This document shows positions 6,032-31,278 of a DNA stretch of 32,000 nt, piece after piece. Every line of letters begins with the position of its first letter. Positions within the stretch are counted from its first letter, which is position 1. The notes under the pieces are model-generated. The model did not search any database and was not told the origin of the DNA. It saw only the letters and a program-made list of their open reading frames with translations. The position numbers and the translations under genes were made by a program. Origin of the DNA: Candidatus Saccharimonadota bacterium (GTDB taxonomy: Bacteria; Patescibacteriota; Gracilibacteria; BD1-5; UBA2023); contig JAXLZO010000001.1 of the NCBI GenBank assembly GCA_046350815.1, positions 1,200,001 to 1,232,000 on the forward strand, read 5' to 3'.

Positions 6032-6592
6032 TTATATTCTTCGAAAAGGTCATTTCATAGAGCCAATCATAACAATACCAGCACTCAGACATCCAAGAAT
6101 AATTCATACAAGGATATCACTTGGATAGTGAACCTGCAAATAGAATCGTGAAAAAGCAATCAAACAAGCAAGGATACAGACAATTCATGTAATTATCGGA
6201 TATTTCCGAGAGAAAAGCCAAGTGAAAAGTAATGCAAATGCCACCGAAGCGCTCGCATGACCCGATGGAAAAGAAGATGTAATCGGTGGGGATACGAGCA
6301 AATGGATAGAATCAATAGTTTCAAAAGGGCGAGCACGGTGGAAGATATGTTTAAGAATAACCTCTCACAAAAGAATATTCACACATAATCCAGCTAAAAG
6401 AATAGAAGATTGGATACGAAACTTTTGATAGAAAAACAACCCAACAATCATTCCCATCCATACCATTCCCCAGTCCCCAAGATGAGTCATAGATATCATA
6501 ATGTGATCCAAGAAAGGAGTATGAAGAGAGGCTGCCTGCTCAACCCAATACATATCCCATAAGGCAATAACGCCAAAAATATGATCTATCAT
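6032..6592 (-). CDS. PAP2-family lipid phosphatase (undecaprenyl-diphosphate/phosphatidic acid phosphatase type), 186 aa
   Basis: ATG at 6592; TAA (complement) at 6032-6034; track ORF 6365-6592 extended through TGA codons. All three PAP2 motifs are present: KHIFHRARP, PSGHAS and SRFYLQVHYPSD. Multiple TM helices. Confidence 0.85.
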
Positions 6593-6598
6593 AGGATG

Positions 6599-9500
6599 TT
6601 ATATGAGTCGTCTTATTGCTATCTCGAGCGTACCGAGCTCATCAAATTCTTCGCTCTTTCGAAGATCTGCTTGTGAAATCTCAGATACAAATATTGCAAG
6701 TGTTTCATTCTGTATAAACATACCATGACTTTCTATTACATCATCGATTGCACCAGAGAGAGCAATCTCGATACGATCTGATACATCATAATTTGCCTCT
6801 TTTCGCATATCTTGGATGATACGGACGAGATCACGAGCATATCATTCACGAGCAAGCTCCGGAGTGATTGATGTATCGAGAGCAATAACCATATGTCCTT
6901 CACCCGCCACGTCAGATCATTGCACATATGGCTCGTACGCATTCGTGAATTCCCCAATTTCGAGTATGTGACCAGCAACAACAACCCTACCATCCTCGAG
7001 AGATTCAAATACTCCTTGTTTTCCAGATTGAATAATCGACTGAATTTCCTTACCAAATTTTGGACCGAGAAGACGCGCATCTACCTTGATAATAGAACGC
7101 GCAATCGTATCTGGCGAAGTAGTGACGATTTCATGAATATTGAGCTCGTCACGGATAATTTCACTTGCCATCTCATCAAACTCTCGAGAGATAGTAATGC
7201 GTGAAAGTGGCTGACGAACACGTATTTTTTTCTGTGCCCGCAGTGAAAGACCAAGGCGGATAACACTGCGAACATCCTCCATTTCAGCATTTAGATGAGT
7301 ATTGACATGATGCCTCGAAAATTCTGGCCACATCGAGAGATGTACACTCTCTGATCATGTAAGACCACAATAGAGAGATTCACTGATAAATGGACAGATC
7401 GGAGCAAGAAGCTGAGTCACGCTTACAAGTGTTCGATGGAGCGTTTCATACGCTGAGAGCTTGTCGCTGTCATTTCCTGATTTCCAGAATCTCTTACGAG
7501 AGCGTCGAACATAGAAATTCGTGATATCATCAATGAGTCGTACGATTGATGTAGTTGCTCGAGGAAGATGGTATTCATCAAGAGCAGAAGTCACCTCTGC
7601 AATCGCGACTTGAAGACGAGACGACATCCAGATATCGAGTGGATTGACGAGTGGATATGGTGGTAATTCTAAAACTTCAGCATTCACGAGACGAAGCGCA
7701 TGCTCATGAGTCGTTGATGATCGAGCAAAACGTGATACACCCACAGCGCGACCTGTACCACCATGTGCAACCATCAAGATACGTTCATTCGGATATTTTT
7801 GCTCCAACATGTCAATATATGTATTTACACGCTGGAGAAATTCAGCCTCTGTCTCAGCTCCAAACGCAAGTGCTTTTTCAAAATAATTCGCATGGGTTAC
7901 GCTTGGATCAAGCGCTTGCATCTCTGTGAGAGTAAGAGAAGAGAACTTTCATGCACTTCGCTCTTGAAGTTCTTCATGAATTTCAAGAGAAAGATGTTCC
8001 AATCCAAGTTCCCGACGTACGATTTCAGCAGTCTCCTGAGTTCGAATTGAGGGAGTGACGATAATACGATCGAATGTTTTTCCTTGTAACTTGAGTCGTT
8101 TTGCTGTCTCGTATGCCTGTTGTTTTCCAAGTTCAGTAATATGAACATCGGCACCACTATCACTCACACGTCATGTCGCATTTGCTTCACTCTCAGCATG
8201 TCGCATCAGAGTAATAGATCATTTTCTCGGTGACCAACCATCAATATTCGCATAGGTCGTGAAGAAGCTGTATGTATTCCAAATGGGGAGAAGTACACTT
8301 TTAACAACTTCTTCAACCCCCTGCTCACTAAAACGAAGATCTTCTGCTCGAGTCGCAGGAGAGGAAAGAATATAGAACCTCAATGCATCCGCACCATGTT
8401 TTGAGAGAAGAAGCTCTGGATCTGGATAATTCTTGAGAGACTTTGACATTTTCTTGCCATCTTCAGCGAGAATCAGTCCATTAACGAGGACATGATGAAA
8501 TGGTGGCTCATCAAAGAGTGCAGTTGAGAGTACCATGAGCGTATAGAACCAACCGCGAGTTTGATCAAGGCCTTCAGCGATAAAATCAGCTGGAAAAGTA
8601 TTCGTAAATCGATCCTTTTCGCCAAAAGGAAAATGCTTCTGTGCATATGGCATCGATCATGATTCAAACCAACAATCCAATACCTCCGTGACACGAGTAA
8701 GAGTTTTACCGGACTGTGGATCTTTGAGTCGAATCTTATCAACAAAATGTTTGTGAATATCAACCAGCTCATTGGTAAAGGTATAGTAATATTGTCCATC
8801 TTTCTGATAAATATCTCCAAAATCTTTGTTCAGTTCATACAACTCCGCAATAGATGAGATGCAAACCTGTACTTCCCCGTCATCACTTTTCCATACAGGA
8901 ATTGCCGAACCCCAATAGCGATTACGTGATATATTCCAATCACGCGCGCCCTCAAGCCATTTGCCAAATCGCCCATCACGAAGCATTTCTGGCGCCCAAT
9001 TCGTCTTTGCATTGTTTGCAAGCATCTTCTCACGAAGTGACTCAACATCCACATACCATGCAGATATTCCGCGATAGATAAGTGGGGTTTTACATCGATA
9101 ACAATGTGGATATGAGTGGTCTATCGTGCCTACATGGACAAGTATTTTTCGATCTTTGAGATCTCTAATAACGGTATCATTGTAATCAAAGACGAATTCA
9201 CCAACTCAAAAAGAAATATGCTCGACATTTCCGGTCATATTGATGTGGCCAACATATCCAAGATCTTTTTCAATACCGATAATATTATCATCCTCACCGA
9301 ATGCGGGAGCAATATGTACGACTCCCGTACCCGAATCTGTTGTCACATGATGACCGACAACAACCGAATACACATTTGATCCGAGATTCATACCACGAGG
9401 AAGCTCGTTCATCTCATTCCAGTCAGAATAGAGTGGTTCATATTTGAGTCCAACGAGACATGATCCTGGGTAGCTACGTACCAGAGTATAATCATCAGGT

Positions 9501-10309
9501 GATTTATAGTAAGTCGCTATGCGATCAGTCGCAAGCACATAGGTATCACCTGATGCTTTATCGAGAATCTCTGAGTACCCTATCCCCTCACCCACCGCAA
9601 GACCAAGATTCGCAGGGAGCGTCCACGGAGTTGTTGTCCAAGCAAGAATATATTTTGAGCTACTTCCAACAACCTTAAATTTTACTGTTACAGCCTTATC
9701 CTGTTTGTTCTCATACCCTTGATTCACTTCAAAATTCGCAAGTGGCGTCGCACATCGAGGACAATACGGTACTACGCGATCACGTTCATAAATGAGTCAC
9801 TTCTTGTAGAGTTCACCAAATACCCACCATACCGACTCCATGAAGTCTGTATCCATGGTTTTATAATCATTATCCATATCGATCCATCGACCAATACGAC
9901 GAACGACACGACGCCAATCCTCGACATAACCAAAGACATTTTTTCGGCATTCCTCGTTGAACTCATAAACACCTACACGATCTTCAATATCACGTTTTCC
10001 AGATATTCCGAGCTTCTTCTCGACTATATTCTCGATCGGAAGACCATGACAATCCCAACCAAAACGACGCTCAACATACTTGCCACGCATCGTCTGATAG
10101 CGAGGAATAGCATCTTTGATCGTACCAGCAAGGATATGACCATAGTGAGGAGTACCAGTCGCAAACGGAGGACCATCATAGAAACTAAATTCTTCTCCAC
10201 CCTTACGGATATCGAGTGATTTTTGAAATGTTTTGTGTGTATCCCAATATGCGAGGATCTCCTCTTCAAGAGCTGGGAATGATTGACGGGAATTGATTTG
10301 TGGAAACAT
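6599..10309 (-). CDS. ileS: isoleucyl-tRNA synthetase (1236 aa with UGA=Gly) carrying an internal histidine-phosphatase domain insertion
   Basis: Eight track ORFs (9797-10309, 9206-9727, 8657-9052, 8219-8653, 7949-8167, 7355-7921, 6917-7333, 6599-6808) are all in one frame and are separated only by TGA. HIGH region [16 protein letters not shown]; KMSKS ([14 protein letters not shown]); WFESGSMPYAQ; CP1/editing region; C-terminus ends in TAA at 6599-6601. Confidence 0.95.
7655..8221 (-). other. in-frame histidine phosphatase (PGAM/CobC/SixA-like, branch 1) domain inserted inside ileS
   Basis: Translation [17 protein letters not shown]...[16 protein letters not shown]...[15 protein letters not shown]...[13 protein letters not shown] shows the RHxE, xPxxRxxxTA, ERxxG and HGG signature blocks. 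It is flanked by the IleRS sequences ...[15 protein letters not shown] and [21 protein letters not shown]... Confidence 0.8.
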
Positions 10310-10315
10310 AATATG

Positions 10316-10801
10316 TTAGTTATGAAAAAATGTATGTTTTCGGATGATTTGTTCAATATTTGCAGATCCGTAAAACTTCAACGAAGAAATTCTACCAATA
10401 TCTATCCATTCTGCCTGACTCATCCAAGCCTTCTCGCTTTCTTCGAATCATTTATCTGATAGTTCTCATCAGAGAATATGTGCTGAATAAAAAATCAAAA
10501 TGGATTGAATATATCGCTTCGAAGTATTCGTTCGAAAGAATGCACTCTGACAATCAAGCAATGATTCTATTTCGATATCGTATCCAGTTTCTTCTTTTAC
10601 TTCTCGAACAAGTGCTGCCTCGATAGATTCACCAAGTTCAATCCGTCATCATGGAAGACCATAACCATCACCATGTTGTGGAATAAGGAGTATCTTTCAA
10701 TCTTGAATAATGACACCATAGACCGAAGGACAGAAACGAAGCTCAGAAGATGGAACCTCAAAGGAATTTCCATCTTTGTCATGACAAATAATATTTCTCA
10801 T
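10316..10801 (-). CDS. Nudix hydrolase (161 aa)
   Basis: ATG at 10801; TAA (complement) at 10316-10318, 6 nt before the ileS start. Nudix box GLPGGRIELGESIEAALVREVKEETG, with both PGG glycines encoded by TGA. The standard-code track shows only out-of-frame fragments here. Confidence 0.85.
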
Positions 10802-10812
10802 ATTTACATTAT

Positions 10813-11667
10813 TTATGACAGATTCTTTCTCTCCATTTCATCAAGTGTTTTCCCATTGCTCATTTTCCATTCAATCCATCCATTTGTGGGTCTTCATGTC
10901 AATATAGATGCTGCAAATGATGGAGAACTACCAATATAATCTTCAACAAATATAATATCATCCGCAACTTCCTGAAGAATTCATTTTTCGAGAAGTTCTG
11001 TACGCAATCGCTTTGCTTTTCATTTGAACGATTCTACAACTTCTTTCTTCCCCTTGCTTCAGGCAAGAATAATGAACCCATCATTTGTATACAATCATTT
11101 TCCATCAACACCTCGAGTCTTAATAGAATAAAATGAATTCTCATCAAGATTCTGATCTGGAGTAGACAAAATATCTTTTATGATCGGATATCAACTTGCA
11201 GATAATAACAGATCTATATTCTCTAAAAATTCCTCCATCGATGCTTGTTGATATTCTGGAAGATTGTTCCGAGGTGGAGTTGTATTGTTAGTTAAATTAA
11301 AGCGTTTTATTTGTTTTGCTTTTTCAATAGCTCGAGATTCCAGAAATTTAACATCTCATTTCGTGAGATCATTTCCCTTCGATGTGAACGCGATAGCCAT
11401 TTCCCAAAAATCTTTATTTGTATCATGATTGGCTATACGATCAAAAAGATTCTCCGTTTCACCGATATAAGCAACATCACTTTCATTATCATCTTTCCCA
11501 AAAAGAAAATAAACTCAAGATTGCTGCATCTCCGGACGACTTTTCACATCTTTTAATTTTGCTCGAGGTACCATAATAGCTTTACCAATCCATCAGGATA
11601 GTTCGGTAGTTTTTACGCCCGTCGGACTCCCATCAACAAGAAAAGTTGTAATCGTTTTTCAATGCAT
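10813..11667 (-). CDS. GIY-YIG nuclease-domain protein with a DUF4357-like C-terminal domain (284 aa)
   Basis: ATG at 11667; TAA (complement) at 10813-10815; about 10 in-frame TGA codons. N-terminal GVYFLFG...VAYIGETENLFDRIANH fits the GIY-YIG pattern. C-terminal FVEDYIGSSPSFAASILTGRPTNGWIEWK resembles DUF4357. Confidence 0.7.
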
Positions 11668-18241: not shown

Positions 18242-18994
18242 GGCTCTAAACCAGTTGACAGGATAAATTATCCCATAAACTTGGCTCTATGATCAGTAAA
18301 ACTACCTATAGGAAAAAATCACGAATTTGAGATGCAAAAATACGAGAAATAGTGAAATATTTTTCTCTGGATTTTACTTCAGATAAAACAGCAGTATTAA
18401 CAGGTCTCAATCCAAAAACAACACAGGATTGGTATAGATATATCAGAAAGGCGATAGCCTTTCTCTGTGAGAGAGAAAAGAATGAAATATGGACTGGAAA
18501 TGTTGAGATAGATGAGAGTTACTTCTGACCAACAAGAGTCCGATGAAAGAGAGGAAGGTGAGCTGGTATGAAGACAATAGTATTTGGTTTGCTCAAGAGA
18601 AATGGGAAGGTCTACACAGAGATTGTTCCGGATGTGAAAGCAATGACTCTGGTGCCAATCATTCGATGAAAACTTCATATAGAAGAGTCTGAGATTAACA
18701 GTGATGGATGGTGAGCTTATGATGGGCTTGTAGATATTGGATATGAGAAACACTACCGTGTTCATCATGGGAGTAATGAGTTCGCCAGATGAGCGCAGCA
18801 TATCAACGGAATAGAGAGTTTCTGGAGTTTTACTAAAAGAAGACTCTCTCAATTCAATGGAATCAAGAAAGTCTATTTCTACTATTTTTTGAAAGAATCT
18901 GAATTCAGATATAATTGTCGTATTCAGTGAAAAGATATTTATAAGGAAGTACTGAAGTTACTTCGTCAATATAACCCGTAACTGGTTTAGACCC
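18242..18994 (+). mobile_element. compact IS1595-family (ISXO2-like) insertion sequence, 753 bp
   Basis: Terminal inverted repeats GGCTCTAAACCAGTT (18242-18256) and AACTGGTTTAGACCC (18980-18994) match at 14/15 positions and enclose a single DDE transposase gene. No clean target-site duplication seen. Confidence 0.8.
18289..18981 (+). CDS. IS1595-family DDE transposase (230 aa, 8 UGA-Gly codons)
   Basis: Translation ...NVEIDESYFGPTRVRGKRGRGAGMKTIVFGLLKRNGKVYTEIV...INSDGWGAYDGLVDIGYEKHYRVHHGSNEFARGAQHINGIESFWSFTKRRL matches the IS1595 DDE core. Track ORF 18397-18852 (minus) is its antisense shadow. Confidence 0.88.
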
Positions 18995-18997
18995 TTT

Positions 18998-19566
18998 TTA
19001 TTTTTGAGAAATTGATGCCCACTCACTTCGGAGTATCTCCATACTCACATTATCCTCATAACGATCTCATATCCAGACCTCTTCTCGTTGTCGTCCACAT
19101 TCTTGGAATCCGCATGATTTATAGCACGCAATTGCCCGAAGATTATCTCAACGAACCCAGAGAGACACCTTATGAAGATGAATATACTGAAATGCATACT
19201 TAAGAAGTAATGTTATCGCTCTTGCACCAATTCATTTTCCAGTATTTTCTCCATAGAGAAGAATACCAAAAACTGCATTTCTATTAAACACTGAAACACT
19301 GTTTAATCCAAGTGAACCAACAATAGGCGTTCACGCAATATTCTTGAGCATAATCATAAAGCTATGTTTCTGAGGCTTGGATATCATCTCATTCAAAAAC
19401 TCCTCTTCAATTTATAGCCCATCACTCAGCGTGGAAGATCTGGGACTATATATTTCGCATTATCAAGATGATTGATGCCACGGGTCATGACTTCGAGATC
19501 AGACATTTCAGGAACCACGAGAGCGATTTCCTCATCTTCGAGGACAACAATACGATTGTGGGACAT
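18998..19566 (-). pseudogene. GNAT (RimJ/RimL-like) N-acetyltransferase with a -1 frame break near 19408-19420
   Basis: The N-terminal part from ATG 19566 reads MSHNRIVVLEDEEIALVVPEMSDLEVMTRGINHLDNAKYIVPDLPR.... The acetyl-CoA-binding core (...IEEEFLNEMISKPQKHSFMIMLKNIAGTPIVGSLGLNSV...ENTGKGIGARAITLLLKYAFQYIHLHKVSLWVRGDNLRAIACYKSCGFQECG...) is in the -1 frame and is preceded there by TAA. It ends at TAA 18998-19000. Confidence 0.6.
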
Positions 19567-23010: not shown

Positions 23011-24687
23011 TTAGAGTTGGAGTTTACGAACAAAATACACAATTCAAGCGATAAAAGCCAAGCAAATAGCTGAGAAGAGAGCTATAAACACACCACGATT
23101 CGACTCGATAAGACGATCATCTTTGTCATCACAGACATTTCATATTCCATCTTTATCGGTATCTTTCTGATCATTATTAGAGATCTTTGGGCAATTATCT
23201 TGAGCATTGTAGATGTTGTCATGATCATTGTCTTCACACATATCACCGATACCATCATTATTTGCATCTCTCTGATCACTGTTCTTGATGGTTGGACAGT
23301 TGTCTCTCCAGCCTTCGATCGTATCCCCATCACTATCATCACACATATCGCCTATTTTGTTCTTGTCTTGATCCTTCTGATCTGGATTTTTGATTGCTGG
23401 ACAGTTATCTGCTACATCACCTATGCTATCCTGATCGGTGTCTTTCTGATCTGGATTTGCAATCTTTGGAGCATTATCTTGGGCATCGAGAATACCATCG
23501 TTATCACTGTCATGAGTTTTGAGATATTTTTCTTTGTCATCACATACATCTCCGATACCATTTTGATCAAGATCCAGCTGATCTGGATCAAATAGTGCGC
23601 ATCTATCACATACATCTCCGATTCCATCGTTATCACTATCCTTTTGATCTGGGTTCGAAGTATGAATGCAATTATCAACACCATCTGGAACTCCATCACG
23701 ATCGGTATCAAATTCACATGCATCACCGATATTGTTTGCATTTTGATCTTTTTGATCTCGATTTTTGACTATTGGACAATTGTCACGATCTCAAACAATC
23801 ATATCACCATCATCGTCGCTACATACATCACCAATGCCATCAAAATTTCGATCCTTCTGATCTTTATTTGCCATCGAAGGACAGTTATCACGCATATCGA
23901 TGATTCCATCACTATCAGTATCACGACCAGTAGTTGGAATAGGAAGAAATTCAAGAGGAACAGCACTATCAGTCGGAACATCAAGATTCATATCTTGGCT
24001 TATACCCGATTGTTTGCTCGTAAGTGCGAATAATTCATCATCGCTACATATCCAATTACGATAAGCAAGAATGGGATTTTTTTGCTGAGGTTTGATAATA
24101 TAAATATCATTATTTCGCTGATCAAATCGAAGTGTTTTTATAGATACGCTTGTTTGTGGTCAAACCTCTTTTGCAAAGGAGATACGAAGTGAAGAAAATG
24201 AATAATTCGAAAGATCATTTTGACGAACCTCTATGAATACCCTATCATCTGATGCTATCTCAAATTTCATTGCTTTACTTGTAGCAATATCAATAACAGG
24301 GATGAAGGTTCTTTTTTCCAGCTTATTCTCAAAAGAGAGCGTAATATCAAATCAAGATGGAGCATCTACGGGATCAATGCGCAATTGTGTTTCACGAAGA
24401 TCATCAATAAGTGCAGATTTTTGGTCAATTACATTCTTAGCAAGAGAGCTTGAGAGAGTATAGTCATAACTTTTTCGAACAATACTCGATTTGAGTCATG
24501 ATGGTATAATAATGCCGTCTTGCACAAAGAAAATATTGTCTCATGCTCAAACAGAAAATATGTTACCTACATTATCAGATGGAACTTCAGCGTATTCCGT
24601 AAAACAACGACTATCAAGTGCTGATGCTGTGAATGAATATCCAAGCAATACAAATACCGCAAGAGAAAGAGGAAAGTATCGATTCAT
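23011..24687 (-). CDS. secreted, C-terminally anchored thrombospondin type-3 repeat (Ca-binding) protein (558 aa)
   Basis: ATG at 24687 with signal peptide MNRYFPLSLAVFVLLGYSFTASA. A ~230-aa N-terminal domain is followed by about 9 copies of DNCPxxxNxDQxDxDxDGIGDxCD. The C-terminal hydrophobic helix is GVFIALFSAICLAFIAGIVYFV. TAA at 23011-23013, 11 nt before the DUF2339 start. Confidence 0.85.
23105..23930 (-). repeat. degenerate tandem coding repeats (TSP type-3 Asp-rich calcium-binding units)
   Basis: The GAT/GAC-rich periodic sequence also generates long spurious ORFs in other frames and on the other strand (track ORFs 23082-23342, 23200-23595, 23421-23741, 23644-24033, 23799-23984). Confidence 0.8.
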
Positions 24688-25710: not shown

Positions 25711-28671
25711 CTATACTTTTTCTCGCAGCTTCTCAGTGACAATTTTATCAAGATATCGAATAAGATGCTCTTGAAAATCGTTATTATCGTGGTAGTTATT
25801 ATAGAATTCTAAATGATCATCTACATTTGTGACAATTTTCTCCTTTATCAGATTATTAAAAACTAATTTTCTGTTTGCTCTATCTGTCTGGAGTGAATCA
25901 ATCATTCTCTGATCTCCCACTATCTCATCAGATATATCCGAAATCATCTTCTTTACTTTGTCCTCACTGCTAAAATTCGTACCAAATCGAGTATTGAATT
26001 CAGTGACTATATGATCGAGTATATCTGTAGGTATATCAGTTCCTGAACCAATGAGTGTTGTTGGCATCGGCGTGAGTTCTCCATCTTCTGCGAGGCTGAT
26101 ACGAGCATTTGAAGTCATTTTCTCGTTTCTATACGACTCAAAATCTATAGCATCGAGGACATCCTGACTGATGATAGTTTCTTTCGATCCAAGTTCTATA
26201 ATCTTTTTATAGAGAACCTTGAGGAACTGATAGAGTTCTTCAAATTCAACGACATCATAATCAACTATCTGAGAAATAAAGCTATAGAACTTTGTATATG
26301 ATTTTGTTTTATCCTTGAAGTCATCTATCTGATCGACAGGAAGTTTTTTGATATTCTCGACTACACTATCGAGCATAGCGTGGAGCTTTTCGACTGACAC
26401 GCCTGAGAGTATATCGGTTGCGAATTTATTGACCACAAATGAGTCATATACTCCGAAAGCATCAAGAGCATCTTTGAGGTCGTGAAGCTTATTTGGATCG
26501 CTGCCACTCGCAAGAATAGTAGTCTTATAATAAGGCTCAAATGATTTCTGAATATCTTCTTCAGTGTTGTAGAAATCAAGGACAAATACACCTTCTTTGT
26601 CTTTATGGACTCGATTGAGTCGAGATAGAGTTTGCACAGCGTTGACTCATCCGAGCTTCTTATCGACATACATCGTCTGGAGAAGTGGCTGATCAAATCC
26701 TGTCTGGAATTTATTAGCACATATGAGAATCTGATAATTTCCATTTTCGAACTCATCAGGGATTTTACTGGAGCTAAAGTGATTGAGATTCGACTCGTTC
26801 CAATCAGTCCCATCGATATTCACATCTCCTGAGAAAGCCACAATTACAGCAAGAGGAAGATTTTTTTCTTTGATGAGTTGTTTGAAGGCAAAGCTATATT
26901 TTACCGCACTCTTACGACTTCCACATACGACCATTGCTTTTGCTCTTCACCCTACAAGTCCCTTGAGATATACCTGATTATAAAAGTGATCTATCATCAC
27001 TTCTGCTTTTTTCTCTATGGTTGCCGTGTGAGTCTCCACGAATCCTTTGAGCTGTCTATTTGCTCGTTTTTTATCATACTCACGATCCTTATCACCTGTG
27101 ATGATGAGTTCATAATAACTCTGGAAGGTAGTATAGTTCGAGAGCACATCCATTATAAATCCCTCTTCGATAGCCTGTTTCATCGTATAGTTATGATACG
27201 CCCGATATTTTCCATCATCTCATCGTACTCAAAATATTTCGAGAGTTTTATTCTTTGGAGTGGCAGTGAAGGCAAAATAGCTTGCATTTGGAAGCATCTT
27301 TCGAGCTTGTAGAGTCTCAAGGACTACATCCTCATCGGTATACTCTTCTACACTTTCTTCGTCTTTTTCTTCTTCGAGTGTCATTGTCTTATTCATCTTT
27401 CCGATTGTCTCACCACTGGTACTGGAGTGAGCCTCATCGATGATGATAGCAAATCTCTGACTTCAGAGTGTTCCTATCGTATCGACTATCATCGGAAATT
27501 TCTGAATAGTTGTGATGATTATTCTTTTTCCACTCTCCAATGCTGATTTGAGCTGTTTACTTCCATCTGTGATAGCTTCTACGAGTCCACGAGTATGATC
27601 AAATCCACTCACTGTATCTCTGAGCTGTTTATCGAGTACCTGACGATCAGTGATGATAAGGATACTATCAAATACATTGGTCACTCCGTCTTGCATATAG
27701 AGTCCTGCGAGTTGGTGAGCGAGCCATCCAATAGAGTTACTCTTTCCACTTCCTGCACTATGCTGTATGAGGTATTTTTGTCCTGTTCCTTTTCCTTTTG
27801 CATCCTGAAGGAGCTTATTTACTACCGTGAACTGATGATAGCGAGGAAAAATCAGCTTTCGTACTTTCTTGCCTCATTTTTCTTCGATGATGACTTGTGC
27901 GAAGTCTCGTATCAGCTTAGAGAGATTGGATTTTGTAAGGATTTCTTCCCACATATAGCTCGTACGAATACCATCTTCTAATGGAGGATTTCCTGCTCAC
28001 TCATTGTATCATTTGTTAAATGGGAGAAACCAAGTCTTGTTATCTTCGAGTCGAGTCGTCATATAGACAAGCTCTGTATCGACTGCAAAATGCACAAGGC
28101 ATCGCTCAAATCGAAAAAGCTCTTCACGACTACTTCTATCAGTTTTATACTGCTCGATAGCATCTTTTACATTTTGTCCTGTGAGGAGATTTTTGAGTTC
28201 GAGAGTTGTGATTGGGAGTCCATTGATAAGAAGTACCATATCGATGGACTTATTGTTCTGGAGGCTAAAAAATAGCTGTCTCGTCACGATAAAGGTATTG
28301 GCTTCCCAGAGAGCTATGAGATCTGGATTCAGAGTCGAATTTGGCTCAAAAAAGAAAACCATAATATGGGCATCTCTATCTTTCACTCATTTTCTCATCA
28401 CGTGTATGATTCCTTTTTCTGCGATTTCTTTCTGGAGTCTCTGGAGGAATTTTGATTGATATGATTCTCCATAGTTTACTCTGAGTTTTTCGATCTCTTT
28501 TGGCTGTGTTCGCTCTACGAAATCCCAAAATGCCACAAGGTCGATACATTCCTTACGGTCATAATGTCCTGAATGTTCTCCAGAGTAGAATTTCTGGACG
28601 AATCCATTTTGTTTGATGAGGGATTCAGTGAATAATTGCTCGAATCCTGATTCACGAGTATTGGTAGACAT
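25711..28671 (-). CDS. hsdR: type I restriction enzyme R subunit (986 aa)
   Basis: Track ORFs 28387-28671, 28009-28386, 27463-27696, 26947-27183, 26647-26934 and 25711-26637 are in one frame. In gaps 27184-27462 and 27697-28008 the only in-frame stop codons are TGA. N-terminal nuclease region (FFEPNS...IDMVLLINGLPITTLELK), helicase motif I (HSAGSGKSNS), DEAH box (IIIDEAHSS) and motif VI (QTLSRLNR). TAG at 25711-25713. Confidence 0.93.
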
Positions 28672-28681
28672 AAATACGCGG

Positions 28682-29932
28682 TTATGAAATACTGATTTTC
28701 CCTGTTACTGTTTGATAGATGAGACTGGTCTGGTATTCTTCGATGAGAGCGATTTCTTGTTCTATTTTTGCTATGGCTGAGTCGATTTGAGATAATTGTT
28801 GCTCGATATACTGAATAATTTTATTCTGGGTAAAATTATTTGGTAATGGAATCACTATATTTCATACAGTGTCGATATTTAGATTGAGTTGTGTTCATTC
28901 TTTTCAAATTCAAGAGTAGGCTAATCCTGAATATAAGATATAAAATAAATACATCTTATTTATTCTCTCATTTAGCTTTCAAAAAGTTACAAATCAATCG
29001 TGAATGCAACATTTTATGTTTGCAATTATTGGTTTTCATACGGATCAAGCTATACTGAGAAAAAGGTCTCAGGGATATTGTTTTACGCTCAAAGATGCTC
29101 ATAATTCGGACAACTGTTGCTCTGTAGTCTCAAGATACATATTGCTCGCACTTACATCTGATATTCTAACCCAAGCAAATTCTCCATTATCATCAAAATA
29201 TTTTTTATCATCTATTGGACGTGGCGAGGCTCATCTTTTTATATTTGAAAGCATTTTTAATCTCCTTACTTCCCAATCCTCTGGAATTTCTCCAATCCAC
29301 GGGATTCCACTCTCTTTCATCTTTGCATTTGGATCAATTCACTTCGTGACAGCACGATGGATAATAGATTGTTTTTGTTCTTTGAGAAGCTCGATGAGTT
29401 TTCTTTTATTTTCGACGAGTTTCTTGATCTCAGTCGTTTTTTGGTCGAGGAAGTTAGCGATGGCGGTTTGAGTGGAGAGAGGAGGGAGAGGGATTTGAAA
29501 ATTTTGTAGCATTGGGAGCCTCAGGCTGTCCACTGTAGATTTTGCAGATATACGCAAGACTTCATTATAAAAATTCGATTTCATGAAGTAATAAAGATAT
29601 TTTCATGTTACTTTCCGAAAATCGGTAAAGGCATATACTCTTTGATGAAACGCAAATTTTCATTGAAAATAATGAAATACTCGTCATGCTCAAACTCAAT
29701 CTCATGCAGTCAACACAGCCTCGCAATCCATAGAATATGAATCCAAACTTTCAATATTTTCTGATCTTACAAAAAATGGATAGATTCCATCGGGCAAGTT
29801 ATCTTGAGTATCTTTATCTCAAGTTTGAATTCTAGCCAGAAATTTCAATCGTCTCACTTCCCAATCCTCAGGAATCTCTCAGATCCAAGGGATATTTGAT
29901 TGTTTTAGGGATGTTGTAGGACTTTGAGTCAT
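28682..29932 (-). CDS. hsdS: type I restriction-modification S (specificity) subunit, two TRDs (416 aa)
   Basis: ATG at 29932; TAA at 28682-28684, 10 nt before the hsdR start. The block IPWIGEIPEDWEVRRLK is duplicated at the start of each TRD. Central conserved region (PLPPLSTQTAIANFLDQKTTEIKKLVENKRKLIELLKEQKQSIIHRAVTKG) and C-terminal conserved region (IIQYIEQQLSQIDSAIAKIEQEIALIEEYQTSLIYQTVTGKI). Confidence 0.9.
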
Positions 29933-30555: not shown

Positions 30556-31278
30556 TTAACAGCTTATATTTTGAGGTTTCCAGAAAAAGAGATTAAATTT
30601 CTTTTCTCATCTTAGTGTACTTTTTCTGAGTGAATACTTACTTCGTTCTTCAATCCGTTTTATAATTTCTATTTTCGCGGAACTGGTTTCAAGGTCTCGA
30701 TTAACATAGGCAAGTGCTCACGCAAATATATCAGTCAGTTGCATTATTTCAACCTCGTGAGATCGTATGAGTTGTATTTTCTTTATGATCCTATGATTAA
30801 AGTCATACATCGAATTTATAAGAACATCATTGAGTTTTTGTATTTTTTCTCAACCATTTGTATCTTTTATGTCTATATAGAAATTATAGCTATATTCAGG
30901 ATCAATAATAGATAAAAGTTGCCAGTACATCTTATAGTACCAATCATTATATGTTTGATTGAATTGAGCGTGGTCGAGAGTGTCTTTATCTGTTATGACT
31001 AAGGCTCGAAGTACAATATCATCATCATCAAAAAAATAGTCTACCAAATCCAGATAAAAATCTTTTTTTGAATCCGATATTTTTGTCCATTTAACTTCTT
31101 GAAATTCTGATATTCAATGCTTTTTCTTGATTTCTTTTATCCGTGTAAAGATTTCAAATCTCTTATCTTGAGGCACTTGTACACCTGCAAGAACCATTAC
31201 TTTTTTATTTTGTCCATTGAGAGAATTATCATTCTCAAGGTGACAGCTTTCATCACAATAAAAATTGTATGTTGTCAT
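30556..31278 (-). CDS. DUF3800-like protein (240 aa) embedded in the type I R-M operon
   Basis: ATG at 31278, 4 nt after the hsdM TAA. N-terminus MTTYNFYCDESCHLEND (the xxxDES start characteristic of DUF3800), a mid-region acidic block, and C-terminal LTDIFAGALAY. TAA at 30556-30558. Track ORF 30850-31047 is an internal piece. Confidence 0.6.

Follow-up and report, generated by a model that had tools for sequence, protein, structure and literature searches.

The phosphatases PhoE (PDB 1H2E), CobC (6E4B), PspA (4IJ5/4IJ6) and Rv2419c (4PZ9) are free-standing members of the histidine phosphatase (HP) superfamily that share a fold, a length of ~190 amino acids and the residue series R-H...N...R...E...H. 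Here we report that a domain with the same fold, length and residue series lies inside another enzyme, the isoleucyl-tRNA synthetase (IleRS) encoded by ileS in a 32,000-nucleotide stretch of a genome from the Gracilibacteria lineage (contig JAXLZO010000001.1, positions 1,200,001 to 1,232,000; hereafter, the window). The window protein shares its catalytic, CP1, anticodon-binding and DUF5915 domains with type-2 (MupA/MupB-like) bacterial IleRS, and differs from them by ~190 extra residues in a loop between two helices. In its relatives the extra residues amount to as many as ~900.

Few enzymes are as conserved as aminoacyl-tRNA synthetases, and new biology has come to light more than once through their accessory catalytic domains, such as editing domains and the domains appended in eukaryotes. 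The CP1 domain of class Ia synthetases is a hydrolytic domain that sits in a loop of the synthetase body and acts on the enzyme's own products. However, CP1 is an ancient esterase for mischarged tRNA that is found universally, whereas the HP domain is lineage-specific and belongs to a phosphoryl-transfer chemistry. To our knowledge, no synthetase with accessory chemistry of the latter kind has been described. A curated precedent for a foreign catalytic domain in IleRS exists in NF040702 (IleRS with an N-acetyltransferase domain), although both the domain family and the insertion site differ from those in the window; acetyltransferase inserts of this GNAT type do occur in some relatives of the window protein (see below).

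Histidine phosphatases joined to other enzymes are known from two systems. In the RNase H/acid phosphatase family (NF005567, Rv2228c type), a CobC-like HP is fused to a nucleic-acid-processing enzyme, but this is a terminal fusion, and the window domain scores far below the family cutoff of 326 bits. In mycobacterial MutT1, a NUDIX domain and an RHG-phosphatase form a nucleotide-sanitising pair (PMC11784022), and the protein acts on nucleotides as well as on phosphoproteins (PMC11784022, PMC12407098). NUDIX and HP likewise occur in one polypeptide in three relatives of the window IleRS (L016, L061 and P0231). Yet MutT1 is a terminal two-domain fusion without a synthetase, and its HP is of the short, SixA-like form.

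A histidine phosphatase domain inserted in IleRS

The ileS gene lies on the minus strand of the window at 6599..10309, as do all features of the protein given below, and consists of 1236 codons when read with genetic code 25. Compared with the IleRS proteins P0017 and P0148, which have ~14 residues at the site, it carries an additional block at amino acids (aa) 697-885 (7655..8221). In P0017 the region without the insert reads ...YANTSGWKPRDVREHSSHPLDRW..., with ~14 residues between ...YAN and ...PLDxW. A sequence-only reading of the window had placed an insert of about 185 aa at 7655-8221, and these proved to be the exact coordinates. It had also placed the block between the sequence after the KMSKS region and the helix that opens the anticodon-binding domain. 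Indeed, the block lies between the catalytic and anticodon-binding domains, ahead of the NPLDIW helix: a long helix (aa 666-690, 8240..8314; H22-49 in the structure model described below) ends at the insertion point, the IleRS resumes with the helix that opens the anticodon-binding domain (aa 889-910, 7580..7645; H250-271 in the model), and the Pfam Anticodon_1 match begins at aa 892.

The inserted block contains an HP domain of branch 1 (His_Phos_1, PF00300) at aa 699-878 (7676..8215). The match scored 104-108 bits against a Pfam cutoff of 21.7, covering profile positions 1-176 of 194, with E = 8e-30 within the whole code-25 translation and E = 5e-31 for the insert alone. A sequence search of the PDB matched the insert to dPGM, PhoE and CobC. 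The full catalytic set of branch 1, which the sequence-only reading had recognized, is present: the phosphate-binding Arg and nucleophilic His R703-H704 in the RHA(G)E motif (8198..8203), the second phosphate-binding Arg R756 in PSIRTQET (8042..8044), the general acid/base E783 in LQERSAG (7961..7963) and the second catalytic His H849 in VAHGGTGR (7763..7765). These residues align with those of known and free-standing HP members, and N710 is present as well.

We modelled the structure with AlphaFold2 from an alignment of ten homologs with an HP at the same site, using as a proxy the corresponding segment of P0159, an NCBI Gracilibacteria IleRS that is 87% identical to the window protein. The model was confident, with a mean predicted local distance difference test score (pLDDT) of 84.5, a predicted template modelling score of 0.78 and a pLDDT mostly >90 in the HP core. 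It shows an alpha/beta domain, joined by linkers of ~7-8 residues, between a 28-residue helix and the first helix of the anticodon-binding domain. The domain has the PGM-like alpha/beta/alpha fold: Foldseek matched it to >50 HP structures with a probability of 1.0, and to >280 PDB chains at E<=1e-3. The best superpositions, with a root-mean-square deviation (rmsd) of 2.5-3.5 A, were to PhoE (1h2e), CobC (6e4b), the phosphoserine phosphatase PspA (4ij6) and Rv2419c (4pz9).

An intein can be rejected, as had already been argued from the letters of the window: no Hint or intein family of Pfam was matched, and the junctions SPRK/GSITL and PPYPLV/NPLD have neither the HN nor the nucleophile pattern of a splice site. 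The HP domain is permanently embedded in a surface loop of IleRS, and is translated with the synthetase rather than spliced out.

Identity of the synthetase and the genetic code

Apart from nine in-frame TGA codons, the frame that starts at 10309 has no stop until the TAA at 6599-6601, so that the earlier claim of a single 1236-codon frame with UGA read as Gly holds. The TGA at 8657-8659 stands at the universally conserved Gly of the CWFESGSMPYA motif, and eight of the nine TGA codons align with Gly in P0159. We therefore read UGA as Gly rather than Trp. Three such codons fall in the inserted block (8219-8221, 8171-8173 and 7949-7951). Several public translations of these genes (among them P0006, P0010 and P0154) have Trp at the conserved Gly (e.g., VWHSWSARP), code 4 having been used instead of code 25, and many further database entries are fragments broken at UGA by gene calling with code 11.

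The protein is an IleRS by the equivalog model TIGR00392, with 896 bits against a cutoff of 621.4 in two stretches that have the insert between them. The IleRS motifs are intact, with HYGH (HIGH) at aa 55-58, KMSKS at 620-624 and the WTTTPWT editing motif at 224-230. Its domains are the class I catalytic domain together with its CP1 editing insertion (aa 18-658, 8336..10258; PF00133 tRNA-synt_1, E = 5.5e-145), the anticodon-binding domain (aa 892-1036, 7202..7636; PF08264 Anticodon_1, E = 3.7e-28) and a DUF5915 C-terminal domain (aa 1050-1216, 6662..7162; PF19302, E = 7.7e-30). The last of these is a marker of the type-2 (eukaryote-like) form, and stands in place of the zinc-finger C-terminus of type 1. 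After ileS itself, the nearest NCBIfam models were MupA and MupB. By score, the protein is not a mupirocin-resistance IleRS of either kind (NF000257/NF000258), with 753 and 690 bits against an exception-model cutoff of 1900. It is also not of the ileS_w_GNAT type (NF040702; 313 bits against a cutoff of 1999), and it has no GNAT domain.

An unclassified phosphatase-type domain

We compared the window HP with the named subfamilies of NCBIfam. The best score was to the alpha-ribazole phosphatase CobC (TIGR03162), with 69-74 bits against a cutoff of 162.9, followed by the RNase H/acid phosphatase family NF005567 with 73 bits. For the phosphohistidine phosphatase SixA (TIGR00249), 41-45 bits were obtained against a cutoff of 74.5, over the N-terminal half only. 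The dPGM models gave 37-53 bits against cutoffs of 225-316, and the dPGM mutases superposed on the P0159 model less tightly than the phosphatases did, with an rmsd of 6-7 A. Mutase-specific residues of dPGM are Y92, K100 and N186 (E. coli numbering). Residues of the mutase type are absent from the window HP, which reads ERSAG and HGG at the places of ERHYG and HGN in dPGM. Because it falls below every NCBIfam subfamily cutoff and lacks the mutase-type residues, the window HP is, as judged by its sequence, an unclassified phosphatase-type member of the superfamily that belongs to no named subfamily.

The embedded phosphatase domain is the norm in a bacterial class

We sought the same architecture in other genomes in two ways. 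First, we used a query spanning the insertion junction and took the best 80 species-representative loci, with one genome per species, rebuilding their open reading frames (ORFs) with TAA and TAG as the sole stops. All 80 loci covered the full query including the HP, and they carried the labels Gracilibacteria, Peribacteria or Patescibacteria; complete chromosomes and animal-oral lineages were among them. The HP domain at the window's insertion site (hereafter, site A) and a correspondingly widened spacing between KMSKS and RRSRxRF (299-332 aa) were found in 80/80 ORFs. In-frame TGA codons in the IleRS core were found in 53 of the 80 relatives; as the other 27 may just happen to have none there, such counts do not separate code-25 from code-11 hosts. 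Since the identical junction recurs in all 80 species genomes, a chimeric assembly, which the sequence-only reading had wished to see excluded, can be rejected; its suggestion of a fusion specific to a lineage of the candidate phyla radiation (CPR) is likewise borne out. Second, we ran an exhaustive profile search over 1.84 billion cluster representatives (E<=1e-30), which matched 675 representatives, with an HP in 115 of the top 150. Each HP-bearing protein whose architecture was checked was a type-2 IleRS. An HP at site A is thus not rare but the norm for a whole bacterial class.

The junction-spanning query also matched many database proteins that join IleRS domains with PF00300. A single JGI annotation names such a protein ‘isoleucyl-tRNA synthetase/...phosphoglycerate mutase’, and full-length public versions (1225-1239 aa) bear the plain name ‘isoleucine--tRNA ligase [Candidatus Gracilibacteria bacterium]’. 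Our literature searches did not turn up any account of an aminoacyl-tRNA synthetase with a histidine phosphatase. The HP-bearing IleRS is therefore apparently undescribed, although its sequences are already public and are filed in the databases under the plain name isoleucine--tRNA ligase.

IleRS loops carry several kinds of module

The HP at site A belongs to a much larger pattern, in which modules are inserted in frame in this IleRS lineage; the fusion described in the sequence-only reading is real, but it is not single. When mapped on the window protein, the insertions fall at six hot spots: S1 (~aa 211-220, in CP1), B1 (~aa 498-516), B2 (~aa 526-536), C (~aa 564-572), D (~aa 601) and A (~aa 694). 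HP was found in five of these six loops (B1, B2, C, D and A), with a maximum of four copies per protein. The window IleRS, with an HP at site A only, is the minimal version. A large set of proteins of ~1150-1250 aa has HP at B1 only, and the Peribacteraceae-type IleRS (P0148 and P0147) lacks the site-A module and has HP at both B1 and B2. The B1-only protein P0290 comes from a contig (L082; JASGCN010000001.1, GCA_030054135.1) deposited as ‘Alphaproteobacteria bacterium’; this label may be wrong, as the contig has the compact, co-directional housekeeping array typical of CPR genomes.

Other module types share these loops. In ~18 of the 80 relatives, NUDIX is embedded at S1, ahead of the WTTTPWT motif; these modules have a weak but recurrent similarity to the RNA-decapping Nudt16. 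One or two alpha/beta serine hydrolases (PF06821) occur at B2 and a GNAT domain at C, with GNAT inserts found in L055, L074 and, together with HP, in P0192. Giant IleRS of 1700 to >2100 aa were found in seven cases (L024, L016, L061, L068, P0144, P0192 and P0231). In L016 and L061 the IleRS carries NUDIX, HP, two PF06821 serine hydrolases and then another HP; P0231 similarly combines NUDIX and HP in one polypeptide. In L024 (JANPGO010000063.1), an ORF of at least 2165 aa has four His_Phos_1 stretches by Pfam. Two modules were each seen in frame in a single genome: a DUF559 endonuclease-like domain at B2 in L058 (JAGYLK010000042.1; E = 2.6e-30) and an IS200-type Y1 transposase domain at C in L050 (OZ245768.1; E = 1e-8). 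Such cases suggest that ileS loops can capture mobile-element ORFs while the gene stays intact. A further insert of ~230 aa in L068 (JAQUKG010000014.1, aa ~698-929) has two H-x-T-x motifs (PHATIV...FHITFG) that recall 2H phosphoesterases. We left the insert unassigned, as it had no Pfam or PDB sequence match.

Conservation and history of the HP modules

In a census of 113 near-complete HP modules, no exception was found at the nucleophilic His, the two Arg, the Asn or the second His, and the acid position was held by Glu in 108 and by Asp in 5, which points to selection on catalysis. Between genomes, the site-A HP has a mean pairwise identity of 36%, compared to 59% for the flanking IleRS. Its divergence tracks that of IleRS (r = 0.76), and the N-side junction, from YAN to RH(G/A), is 12-15 residues long in all 81 proteins. 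Together, these values indicate that the site-A HP is ancient and has been inherited vertically with ileS across the Gracilibacteria and related lineages.

The modules are orthologous by site. HP identity is 35-36% for the same site in different genomes and 27% for different sites in one protein, and for 28 of 32 upstream modules the nearest neighbour was at the same site. Internal copying was seen occasionally: the D module of L024 is ~59% identical to a B1 module, and the B1 and C modules of L068 are 41% identical. In a neighbour-joining tree, which is weak at identities of 25-30%, the distances between site classes are similar to those that separate them from free-standing phosphatases, with the B2 class closest to free-standing RHGETDWN phosphatases. 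These comparisons hint that HP may have been captured by IleRS more than once. Within 795 kb of DNA from these organisms, HP domains were confined to ileS, and the class I methionyl-tRNA synthetase (MetRS) encoded near the B1-type IleRS on the L082 contig is a plain protein of 493 aa with no insert.

What might the embedded phosphatase do?

Throughout a bacterial class, the presumably sole IleRS contains a phosphatase that is apparently active, and the HP family has become fixed in at least five IleRS loops. We tentatively favour the reading that the HP is active and serves as an accessory phosphomonoesterase, coupled to IleRS nucleotide chemistry without channelling; the catalytic activity, the substrate class and the coupling are what we infer for this predicted phosphatase. 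H704 would attack a phosphomonoester bound by R703, R756 and H849, with E783 as acid/base and a phospho-His intermediate. Most likely, the domain would thereby clear adenine-nucleotide products or by-products, i.e., AMP or the breakdown products of Ap4A-type side products, and would work alongside NUDIX enzymes, which are embedded in many relatives and encoded directly upstream of ileS in the window. Co-localisation and matched expression would suffice for this, and no channel to the aminoacylation site would be needed. We favour this reading because HP and IleRS appear to have been joined repeatedly and the joins were kept, and because NUDIX recurs in the same protein; in the window, the end of a NUDIX hydrolase gene (10316..10897, minus strand; PF00293, E = 7e-17) lies 6 nt upstream of the ileS start. 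In addition, the nearest subfamily, CobC, is a nucleotide 5'-phosphatase, and the pairing of NUDIX with an RHG-phosphatase is known from MutT1. The confinement of HP to ileS within the 795 kb examined and the plain MetRS of the L082 contig hint at specificity as well. If the HP does act on IleRS products, tRNA or inhibitors, it would represent a new kind of synthetase-linked housekeeping.

Several observations weigh against such a coupling. The score to CobC is far under the family cutoff (74 against 163 bits). The window NUDIX resembles the embedded NUDIX modules only generically, and the neighbourhood of NUDIX and a downstream PAP2 phosphatase gene (see below) is not kept in L001. Our searches leaned towards IleRS, so that exclusivity of HP to IleRS among aminoacyl-tRNA synthetases is unproven. 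The remaining points concern the loops themselves. HP occurs in five of them with no fixed geometry relative to the synthetic and editing sites, it diverges faster than the IleRS core, and unrelated modules, even of selfish type (DUF559 and the Y1 transposase), occupy the same loops, which shows these to be permissive.

These last points fit equally an autonomous general phosphatase, unrelated to aminoacylation, that rides as a passenger in permissive IleRS loops and is under selection for its phosphatase activity alone. IleRS, in a streamlined genome, would then provide constitutive expression and loops at the protein surface. This explanation is favoured by the variety of the inserts, with six or more unrelated module types (HP, NUDIX, serine hydrolase, GNAT, DUF559 and Y1 transposase) in the six hot spots, as well as by the varying position and faster evolution of HP, and the selfish-type modules point to an ongoing non-adaptive insertion that is filtered by tolerance alone. 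We regard such a passenger as the main rival, somewhat less likely than the coupled phosphomonoesterase, and several observations speak against it. HP predominates, with at least 113 modules compared to 1-18 for the other types, and all 80 species have it at site A; a single protein may keep as many as four diverged paralogues, each with intact catalytic residues; the site classes resemble old, separate lineages; and no insert is present in the MetRS of the L082 contig. Were the HP a passenger, these proteins would be a natural experiment on how much in-frame insertion an essential enzyme tolerates (1212 to >2100 aa), informative for protein engineering and for CPR genome evolution.

A wider version of the coupled phosphomonoesterase, which we regard as unlikely, would make the IleRS of these CPR bacteria (Gracilibacteria, Peregrinibacteria and relatives) a modular multi-enzyme platform that acts on its own substrates and inhibitors. 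One to four diverged active HPs, together with NUDIX, serine-esterase and GNAT modules, might for example heal phosphorylated tRNA(Ile) ends, destroy Ap4A-like by-products or inactivate adenylate-mimic antibiotics. If true, an aminoacyl-tRNA synthetase would thereby gain a new level of quality control or defence that is based on phosphoryl transfer.

Somewhat less likely still is one of these activities taken by itself, that of a tRNA-end phosphatase. As a repair module in cis, the HP would remove a 2'-, 3'- or cyclic-derived phosphate from the damaged 3' end of tRNA(Ile), or from other RNA ends, and thereby make the bound tRNA chargeable. The tethering of HP to a tRNA-binding enzyme by short, rigid linkers is consistent with this, as are the fusion of HP to a nucleic-acid enzyme in the NF005567 family and the Nudt16-like similarity of the embedded NUDIX modules. 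However, the HP modules are mildly acidic (median pI ~6), which does not suggest a basic RNA-binding surface, and their positions offer no consistent approach to A76, site A being at the end of the anticodon domain and the other HPs on the catalytic domain. The candidate 2H phosphoesterase in L068 also found no support, and we know of no RNA-end phosphatase in the HP family.

Regulation of IleRS or of a partner by a phosphoprotein phosphatase (acting on phospho-His, -Ser or -Thr), as with SixA, PGAM5 or the C-terminal domain of MutT1, we consider improbable. The RHG domain of MutT1 does dephosphorylate sensor kinases (PMC12407098), which counts in favour of such a role. The partial similarity to SixA also does so, but its score is under the cutoff, and the window domain is a full-length PhoE/CobC-like one and not the short SixA form. 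Moreover, we know of no kinase partner or phosphosite for the IleRS HP, and CPR genomes have few signalling systems.

More improbable again is a resistance module, in which HP would act with GNAT and esterase modules to inactivate adenylate-mimic or Trojan-horse inhibitors at IleRS. GNAT and serine-hydrolase modules do lie in the same IleRS loops, and the GNAT enzyme MccE detoxifies the warheads of aminoacyl-tRNA synthetase inhibitors. The same is reported for the GNAT enzyme TfxH (tiarin preprint 10.64898/2025.12.02.691738). Yet HP enzymes move a terminal phosphoryl group and not a nucleotidyl group, cleavage of an acyl-adenylate analogue would be unprecedented for the fold, and class-wide conservation fits housekeeping better than niche resistance. 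Finally, a non-catalytic structural or ligand-sensing domain is hardly credible: nothing specific speaks for it apart from the RHA variant (Gly to Ala) of the window motif, which occurs in free-standing phosphatases too, and the catalytic residues are kept in 113/113 modules.

Genomic neighbourhood

Orthologues of the window NUDIX gene, ~50% identical, lie upstream of ileS in L029 and L034. As a source of the embedded NUDIX modules this gene found no support, the similarity being generic (30-45% around the NUDIX box). The gene at 10813-11667 (minus strand) weakly matches a GIY-YIG nuclease and has DUF4357 as its C-terminal domain. With its 3' end it reaches into the longest ORF for NUDIX, so that the true NUDIX start may be further downstream. 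On the other side of ileS, a membrane PAP2-family phosphatase gene (6032..6592, minus strand; PF01569, E = 6.5e-24) follows 6 nt after the stop; a PAP2 gene directly downstream of ileS was not seen in L001 or L082. A conserved NUDIX-ileS-PAP2 operon is therefore only partly true, with NUDIX upstream in L029 and L034 but a different neighbourhood in L001 and L082.

Elsewhere in the window, an IS1595-family (ISXO2-like) DDE transposase gene (18289-18981, plus strand) adjoins a small GNAT acetyltransferase gene (18998-19387, minus strand). By eye, the minus-strand region 25711-29932 encodes two subunits of a type I restriction-modification system, an R subunit of 986 aa with DEAH-box helicase motifs and a 416-aa S subunit whose target-recognition halves are duplicated. 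The two are followed by a DUF3800 protein (30556-31278, minus strand; Pfam E = 6.5e-13). Also by eye, a predicted secreted or anchored protein (23011-24687, minus strand) carries many repeats rich in Asp (...DQKDxDxDGIGDxCD...), similar to the calcium-binding type-3 repeats of thrombospondin.

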